Virus record (IMG/VR): IMGVR_UViG_2529292904_000023
Source: a virus
Lineage: Duplodnaviria > Heunggongvirae > Uroviricota > Caudoviricetes
Reading direction: 5' to 3' (one strand)
Length of the DNA stretch: 27,930 nucleotides
A model generated the notes under the pieces. It saw nothing but the letters and a program-made list of their open reading frames with translations, was not told the DNA's origin and searched no databases. Shown one piece after another: positions 24,922 to 26,822 of the stretch (positions are counted from its first letter, which is position 1; every line of letters starts with the position of its first letter). A program made the position numbers and the translations under genes.

Positions 24922-26822
24922 TATGATGGCTGCCGTTTCGGTTGCGCTGCAGCCTCTGGTCAGGGTTGTACCAATGACGGCAGTTGAATGGGCTGATCAA
25001 AATTATTATCTGCCTAAAGAATCTTCATATGGTGAGGGAGAATGGAAAACGCTGCCATTCCAGATCGCCATTATGAACTGTATGGGTAACGACCAGGTTC
25101 GCACGGTTAACCTGATTAAATCTGCCCGTGTTGGCTATACAAAGATGTTGCTGGGGGTGGTCGGGTATTTTATTGAGCATAAATCCCGAAACAGTCTGCT
25201 TTTTCAGCCCACGGATTCTGCCGCTGAAGATTTTATGAAGTCTCACGTGGAGGCGACGATTCGGAACGTGCCATGCCTGAAAGACCTTTCCCCATGGCTG
25301 GGGCGTAAACATCGTGACAATACTCTCACGCTGAAACGCTTTTCATCGGGCGTCGGTTTCTGGTGCCTGGGCGGCGCTGCCGCCAAAAACTACCGTGAAA
25401 AATCCGTGGACGTGGTCTGCTATGACGAACTTTCCTCGTTCGAGCCGGATGTCGAAAAAGAGGGCTCGCCAACCCTGCTGGGGGATAAGCGTATTGAGGG
25501 GTCGGTGTGGCCAAAATCCATTCGCGGCTCGACGCCTAAAATCAAAGGCACCTGCCAGATCGAAAAAGCCGCTAACGAGTCGGCGCATTTTATGCGTTTT
25601 TATGTGCCCTGCCCGCACTGTGGGGAGGCGCAGTATCTGAAATTTGGCGATGAGTCCACGCCTTTTGGGCTTAAATGGGAGAAGGACAGCCCCGAAAGTG
25701 TTTTCTACCTCTGTGAACATCATGGCTGCGTGATCCATCAGTCTGAACTGGACCAGAGCAACGGGCGGTGGATCTGTGAAAACACGGGCATGTGGACCCG
25801 TGACGGTCTGACGTTTTTCAGCGCCCGGGGCGATGAAATTCCGCCGCCGCGCTCCATCACGTTCCATATCTGGACGGCGTACAGTCCGTTCACCACCTGG
25901 GTACAGATAGTCTATGACTGGCTGGATGCACTGAAAGATCCCAACGGCCTGAAAACCTTTGTGAACACCACGCTGGGCGAGACCTGGGAAGAAGCCGTGG
26001 GCGAAAAACTCGATCACCAGGTACTGATGGATAAGGTCGTGCATTACACAGCGGCGGTGCCTGCCCGGGTGGTTTATCTGACGGCGGGCATTGACTCGCA
26101 GCGAAACCGTTTTGAGATGTATGTCTGGGGATGGGCACCGGGAGAGGAAGCTTTTCTGGTGGATAAAATCATCATTATGGGCCGTCCCGATGAGGAAGAG
26201 ACGCTGTTACGTGTGGATGCGGCGATCAACAAAAAATACCGCCATGCGGATGGCACCGAAATGACTATTTCCCGTGTCTGCTGGGACACCGGGGGGATCG
26301 ATGGTGAAATTGTTTATCAGAGATCAAAAAAACACGGTGTTTTCCGGGTGCTGCCGGTAAAAGGCGCATCTGTCTATGGCAAGCCGGTGATCACCATGCC
26401 AAAAACCCGCAATCAGCGGGGCGTGTATCTGGTGTGAAGTGGGAACGGACACCGCAAAAGAAATTCTCTATGCCCGTATGAAAGCCGATCCCACGCCTGC
26501 GGATGAAGCCACGTCGTATGCCATCCGTTTTCCTGATGATCCGGAGATTTTTTCGCAGACAGAGGCGCAGCAACTGGTCGCGGAAGAGCTTGTGGAGAAG
26601 TGGGAAAAAGGAAAGATGCGTCTGCTGTGGGATAACAAAAAGCGGCGTAACGAAGCGCTGGACTGCCTGGTGTATGCCTACGCGGCATTACGTGTGTCCG
26701 TGCAACGCTGGCAGCTTGATCTGGCTGTACTGGCAAAATCCCGGGAAGAAGAGACGACCCGGCCAACCCTTAAAGAACTGGCAGCGAAGCTGTCCGGAGG
26801 AGTGAATGGTTACAGTCGCTGA
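24893..26822 (+). pseudogene. A: Terminase large subunit (gpA-like) interrupted by an apparent one-base insertion near 26432-26436
   Basis: N-terminal part ends ...RNQRGVYLV-stop at 26437; the C-terminal part continues in another frame from 26436/26439 (EVGTDTAKE...); the two halves align across the junction to one continuous gpA. Confidence 0.75.

Follow-up and report, generated by a model that had tools for sequence, protein, structure and literature searches.

One-base insertions split the terminase and portal genes of a lambdoid prophage in a draft genome of Escherichia coli DEC5D and are probably consensus errors

The window analysed here is a stretch of 27,930 nucleotides that is 100% identical to the end of contig AIFT01000043.1 (83,845 bp, GCA_000249555.2) in the 2012 draft genome of E. 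coli DEC5D, O55:H7. It makes up the last 27.9 kb of that contig, and the window end lies 2 bp short of the contig end. Behind a chromosomal flank, the window carries the left part of a lambdoid prophage adjoining a dusA fragment; in DEC5D, the prophage is integrated at dusA. From there, it runs through early genes, a Q antiterminator, three tRNA genes, a nanS-p-like esterase and lysis genes to the packaging module (Table 1). The slot that holds the tRNA cluster is the stxAB position of Stx phages, and no toxin genes were found between the Q antiterminator and the esterase of the window. The chromosomal flank (window 1-3656) shares 99.8% identity with O157:H- 493/89. At the same attachment site, 493/89 carries a prophage with a packaging module of the HK97 type, not of the lambda/21 type, and the comparison of 493/89 with DEC5D is a case of module swapping at one attachment site. 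We also observed a 21-bp tandem repeat inside the HTH_36 replication-protein gene (12578-12703; 5.7 copies, 73% matches), which is iteron-like and has another length in strain AUSMDU00014361.

Pfam matches, the 12-mer match and the annotations of relatives show that the synteny cos - Nu1 - A - W - portal is present in the window, and the locus is an ordinary DNA-packaging module of the lambda/phage-21 type. The 12-mer upstream of Nu1 has the sequence of the lambda cohesive end. On 9 of the 10 other contigs shown, an identical 168-aa Nu1 product adjoins an intact gpA of 642 aa, and phages of the PhiR12 type reach up to 95% DNA identity to the window terminase.

Table 1. Features of the window, in order of position
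Feature	Position	Strand	Basis or remark
DUF2713 gene, chromosomal flank	1-957		
dusA 3' fragment	~1319-1423		
HTH_36 replication-protein gene	12313-13152		
Q-type antiterminator	16833-17585		
tRNA cluster Met(CAT), Arg(TCG), Arg(TCT)	18088-18339		between Q antiterminator and SASA esterase
nanS-p-like SASA esterase	18865-20718		
cosN-like 12-mer GGGCGGCGACCT	24187..24198	+	upstream of Nu1; one exact match in window, 0.09 expected by chance
Terminase small subunit, Nu1 family, intact, 168 aa	24415..24921	+	Pfam Phage_Nu1, E 1.4e-21
Terminase large subunit, N piece, 514 codons and premature TGA (26435-26437)	24893..26437	+	Pfam GpA_ATPase, first two thirds of GpA_nuclease
Lesion in gpA, GG vs single G of all relatives (CTG-G-TGT-GAA vs CTG-TGT-GAA)	26431..26432	+	alignments
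Terminase large subunit, C piece, 128 codons, +1 frame	26436..26822	+	Pfam GpA_nuclease 208-287
Head-tail joining protein gpW, intact, 68 aa	26806..27012	+	Pfam gpW, E 1.2e-22
Portal protein of the lambda family, in frame for 44 codons, then out of frame up to a premature stop	27009..27185	+	
Second lesion, one extra base, 709 bp downstream of gpA lesion	27140..27141	+	alignments
Portal protein, +1 frame to window end	27142..27930	+	Pfam Phage_portal_2, E 1.1e-63

Instead of a single ORF of ~640 aa, the deposited record holds a gpA gene that is interrupted by a premature TGA. The first frame opens with MNISEQQLNN and reads to TRNQRGVYLV immediately before the stop, and the remainder reads EVGTDTAKEILY... 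in the +1 frame up to a stop at 26820-26822. Both the stop behind GVYLV and the continuation of the gene from 26436 to 26822 had been described in an earlier note on this DNA, and the sequence and its three-frame translation bear this description out. GenBank already shows the split, since EHV32673.1, a 503-aa version of the N piece, and EHV32674.1 (ECDEC5D_5240), the 127-aa ORF from the GTG at 26439 to 26822, are annotated there as separate proteins. The N piece matched GpA_ATPase (PF05876; residues 48-293, E 1.8e-56) and profile positions 3-192 of the 294 positions of GpA_nuclease (E 1.7e-51), and the C piece matched positions 208-287 of the latter (E 4.3e-14). Since they cover successive parts of one Pfam model, the two pieces are consecutive parts of one terminase large subunit. 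Their collinearity with a single gpA, which had also been claimed before, recurs in the alignments to relatives with one extra base, and judged by these matches it is far beyond what chance would produce.

Deletion of one G from the record gave an ORF of 642 aa, as long as the undamaged gene of relatives. The repaired product matches P0121 at every residue, and P0121 is found intact on 49 other contigs. In this repaired protein the GpA_nuclease match is unbroken (positions 3-286), whereas in the record the domain is complete but split. One of the 49 is the chromosome of 2011C-4315, with a gene whose DNA differs at 0.6% of positions; as the protein is identical despite this divergence, the differences are all synonymous. 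Apart from the frameshift, the gpA coding sequence bears no apparent sign of decay. No solved structures matched gpA by sequence.

Comparison with related loci places the extra base precisely. At the break the window reads CTGGTGTGAA, and every relative reads CTGTGTGAA, which codes for Leu-Cys-Glu. When the window was aligned with phage PhiR12_1, E. coli O111 11128 and others, GTATCTGGTGTGAAG of the window stood against GTATCT-GTGTGAAG, with exactly one extra base; with one base less of context on the left, TATCTGGTGTGAAG of the window stood against TATCT-GTGTGAAG of the references, coding for Tyr-Leu-Cys-Glu. Either of the two G at the lesion may be counted as the surplus base. These alignments uphold the claim that GTGT (26432-26435) occupies the place of one codon, and they identify this codon as TGT, Cys. 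The inspection of the same locus in relatives had been proposed in the earlier note as a check, and none of the relatives showed the extra G.

Two possible sources of the gpA insertion were considered and rejected. A union of alleles at this site did not fit the IMG/VR scan, in which no CTG-GGT-GAA or CTG-GTG-GAA allele was found, and this mechanism is supported for the portal site only. The other candidate was the excision footprint of an insertion sequence. CP169018.1 carries an IS3-family element in gpA at the window-equivalent 26439-26441 (L004 8737-9999) with a 3-bp GTG target duplication, which is 7-8 bp off the extra G. In the paralogous gpA of DEC5E, an IS3-family element lies ~90 bp upstream of the insertion site, at the window-equivalent 26339-26342 (L066 8621-9929), and neither element is located at 26431.

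The portal gene of the window carries a second one-base insertion, which was missing from the description in the earlier note. The portal frame starts as MKRTPVL...PPAQSADA and then runs as GPATRVASGECPGR to the premature stop, and the true portal sequence, ALLPALRLGNARADDLVRNNG..., runs on in the +1 frame. At the point of the lesion the window reads GATGCAGGCC, and the intact forms read GATGCGGCC or GATGCAGCC. We scored 39 related portal loci, with the window's own contig left out. GATGC-G-GCC was found at 34 of the 39 loci and GATGC-A-GCC at the other 5, against GATGC-AG-GCC in the window. The GCAGGCC of the window can thus be read as GCAGCC and GCGGCC, the two alleles of the population, merged into one. 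Of these, the A allele occurs in the paralogous module of the sister strain DEC5E and the G allele in the orthologous prophage of GCA_040813075.1. Such a union would be mimicked 5.6% of the time by a random single-base insertion into this region. The SNPs 10-13 bp downstream of the insertion are of the GCA_040813075.1 type, indicating that paralogous reads were not the majority at this site.

The same prophage is found in GCA_040813075.1 (L078) and CP164306.1 (L079), with 99.86% identity over 14-19 kb, and both encode an intact gpA of 642 aa and a portal protein of 530 aa. Across window 24088-27596, the only differences from GCA_040813075.1 are 2 substitutions and the 2 insertions. As an observation on the second of these relatives, CP164306.1 differs from the window by seven isolated one-base indels in early and lysis genes (window-equivalent 11380-22860); it looks like an unpolished long-read assembly, whose frameshifts are not to be taken as biology.

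We then turn to the occurrence of the two insertions in other collections. Among IMG/VR loci that match both flanks of the gpA site, 54 carry GTGT, all of them with intact spacing, and a single one carries GGTGT, which is the window's own contig. Of 5,426 complete E. coli genomes, 1,541 were hit by a 60-base query across the gpA junction, at 2,459 places in total, and the best match was 59/60 everywhere, so that none of the 2,459 places had the insertion and no 60/60 match was obtained. Similarly, the portal junction gave no 60/60 match in the 5,426 complete E. coli genomes. A 30-base sequence across the gpA junction was absent from the GTDB representative genomes and the JGI metagenomes. Moreover, the 503-aa truncated product occurs on 1 contig only. 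We considered whether the frameshift is common to other assemblies, given that six contigs encode the 127-aa product, and rejected this: the insertion is present only in the window's contig, and in the other five the gene is interrupted by an IS, stretches of N, the start of the contig or indels of another kind.

The draft proved error-free wherever it could be checked. No indels were found in window 1-3656 against O157:H- 493/89, nor in window 3595-16815 against DEC9B, and window 8865-23997 matches an independent short-read assembly, GCA_050054395.1, at 100% identity. The latter breaks at 23391 and 23997 with a 99-bp overlap, a pattern that fits a short-read assembly meeting a repeat. Because of this break with overlap, the stretch from ~24.0 kb on, which comprises cos, Nu1, A, W and portal, is most likely multi-copy in the DEC5D genome. 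Both insertions are located inside this putative multi-copy stretch, the last ~3.9 kb of the window, and both fall in its last 1.5 kb, the gpA insertion at 1.5 kb and the portal insertion at 0.8 kb from the contig end.

Close to the start of this stretch, six clustered substitutions (23850, 23886, 23898, 23899, 24052 and 24087), in ynfO and the cos-proximal spacer, distinguish the window from every one of its nearest prophage relatives. The six recur in GCA_050054395.1, GCA_002467385.1 and GCA_902505385.1, and the ynfO variant is QKB30217.1, also recorded on a contig of 5,195,683 bp; 23850-24087 looks like a real recombination patch. At the other end, the last 330 bp of the window (27597-27930) depart at seven positions from the haplotype of GCA_040813075.1 and CP164306.1. 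This haplotype switch could be due to recombination or to drift of the assembler into a paralogous copy.

The record contains both insertions and is the only one to do so among the sequences searched; they lie in a repeat near the contig end, and the repaired terminase is the intact protein that is in circulation. The earlier note had named an assembly error and a genuine inactivating mutation as the alternatives, and these are the two that remain. We favour the former: both insertions are probably consensus errors of the 2012 draft assembly, a reading to which we assign a probability of about 0.65. Such errors would arise where the contig enters a packaging and head module that is present in several slightly different copies, and the real gene would be the intact 642-aa terminase. 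Consensus error is favoured because the insertions occur in one draft only and nowhere outside its multi-copy contig end, because two +1 insertions stand amid only 2 substitutions in 3.5 kb in the comparison with the nearest relative, and because the portal site bears the signature of an allele union while the flanking coding sequence is perfectly preserved. The second insertion, the multi-copy contig end and the uniqueness tilt the balance to an assembly error by about 2:1, and we infer that the insertions would find no support in the reads. The DEC drafts were presumably made by 454 and/or Illumina sequencing, which was not used as evidence here.

The accuracy of the draft elsewhere, including private SNPs that are reproduced in other assemblies, would suit the alternative that both insertions are genuine and very recent mutations of DEC5D, a possible reading that we regard as the less probable one. 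It would require two independent +1 insertions 709 bp apart in an otherwise near-identical prophage, both placed within 1.5 kb of the contig end and in the only multi-copy part of the window. The gpA insertion is not explicable by the merging of known alleles, and G to GG is a common and typical spontaneous insertion, whereas the portal insertion mimics just such a merge of two alleles. The SNPs 10-13 bp downstream of the portal insertion, where paralogous reads were not the majority, count in favour of genuine mutation. Frameshifts in prophage genes and IS insertions are common in this lineage, as reflected by pseudogene flags and the IS-broken gpA of DEC5E, and in the O55:H7/O157:H7 lineage lambdoid prophages are as a rule defective. 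The intact cosN would also agree with genuine mutation. However, neither of the two insertions was found in any other genome searched.

A functional split, be it through programmed +1 frameshifting of the ribosome at GUG-UGA-A or as a two-piece terminase through a restart at GTG 26439, is effectively excluded, since the stop exactly at the shift site and the GTG one base later give only a superficial likeness to stop-codon-stimulated +1 shifting, whereas conservation is lacking (a single ORF is present in more than 1,900 genomes and in all phage relatives), the break falls inside the nuclease domain model, CUG GUG UGA A contains no slippery codon by inspection, re-pairing from GUG to UGU is poor, and inspection found no AGGGGG-like or Shine-Dalgarno-like element at the spacing known from prfB, where the stimulatory Shine-Dalgarno-like element lies ~3 nt upstream.

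If the insertions were real, the truncated gpA would keep its ATPase domain and lose the last third of the nuclease domain, after residue 514; the end that binds the prohead belongs to the corresponding C-terminal region of lambda gpA. Proheads would fail to assemble on account of the portal frameshift at codon 45 alone. Self-packaging would thus be lost to the prophage, and with cosN and Nu1 kept, packaging in trans by sibling prophages would be possible. By analogy with Sp4 of O157 Sakai, one could picture a freshly made double knock-out, of the terminase nuclease domain and the portal, that has become a cos-bearing passenger mobilised only by the near-identical terminase and proheads of siblings; we consider this unlikely. 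The biological weight of the locus is small, as a sequencing or consensus error and a routine inactivating mutation are both of known kinds. For curation the lesson is that frameshifts located a few kb from the end of a draft contig, in prophage modules present in multiple copies, should not be equated with decay without reads or a closed genome, and that such protein fragments spread into protein databases. For DEC5D, a closed chromosome is on record (CP038386; PacBio 310x and Illumina 42x; PMC9413875 Table S1).

Among characterised phages, the closest relative of the window terminase is gene 2 (gp2) of phage 21, with 92% DNA identity over 1.93 kb. The window shares with phage 21 and lambda the gene order Nu1-A-W-portal, the domain pair GpA_ATPase PF05876 and GpA_nuclease PF20454, and the cosN 12-mer upstream. 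Unlike these phages, the window record has the frame broken at codon 515 and encodes pieces of 514 aa and 127 aa. A second comparison is offered by the IS-broken gpA genes of DEC5E (O55:H7, CP038383) and CP169018.1, which belong to the same family and are inactivated in the nuclease domain, as in the window. CP169018.1 even has a C-terminal ORF of 127 aa identical to that of the window, an ORF that results from any break shortly before GTG 26439. However, the lesions of these two strains are ~1.3-kb insertions of IS3-family elements with target-site duplications, in closed genomes, and are not excision footprints. For DEC5E, a table of unique genes lists IS629 and ISEc31 transposases between two fragments of the terminase large subunit (PMC9413875).

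A further parallel is the prophage Sp4 of O157 Sakai, which was still packaged without an intact terminase of its own; the most likely supplier of the enzyme is Sp14, a prophage in the same strain with a near-identical cos (PMC2669165). Other head-defective Sakai prophages were also packaged through other prophages (PMC2669165). The production of infective particles had been put forward earlier as an observation that would refute a real lesion; the case of Sp4 makes this a weak test (PMC2669165), and since packaging in trans is possible as in Sp4, particles induced from DEC5D would not refute a real lesion. The two cases differ in the lesion itself, which in Sp4 is an IS in nu1, verified in a finished genome, and in DEC5D consists of two single-base insertions in a draft only. 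As recorded, the DEC5D prophage shares several features with Sp4 (Asadulghani et al. 2009, PMC2669165): both are lambdoid and come from the same lineage, both have a terminase that is out of action and a cos that is kept, and both have siblings with near-identical packaging modules.
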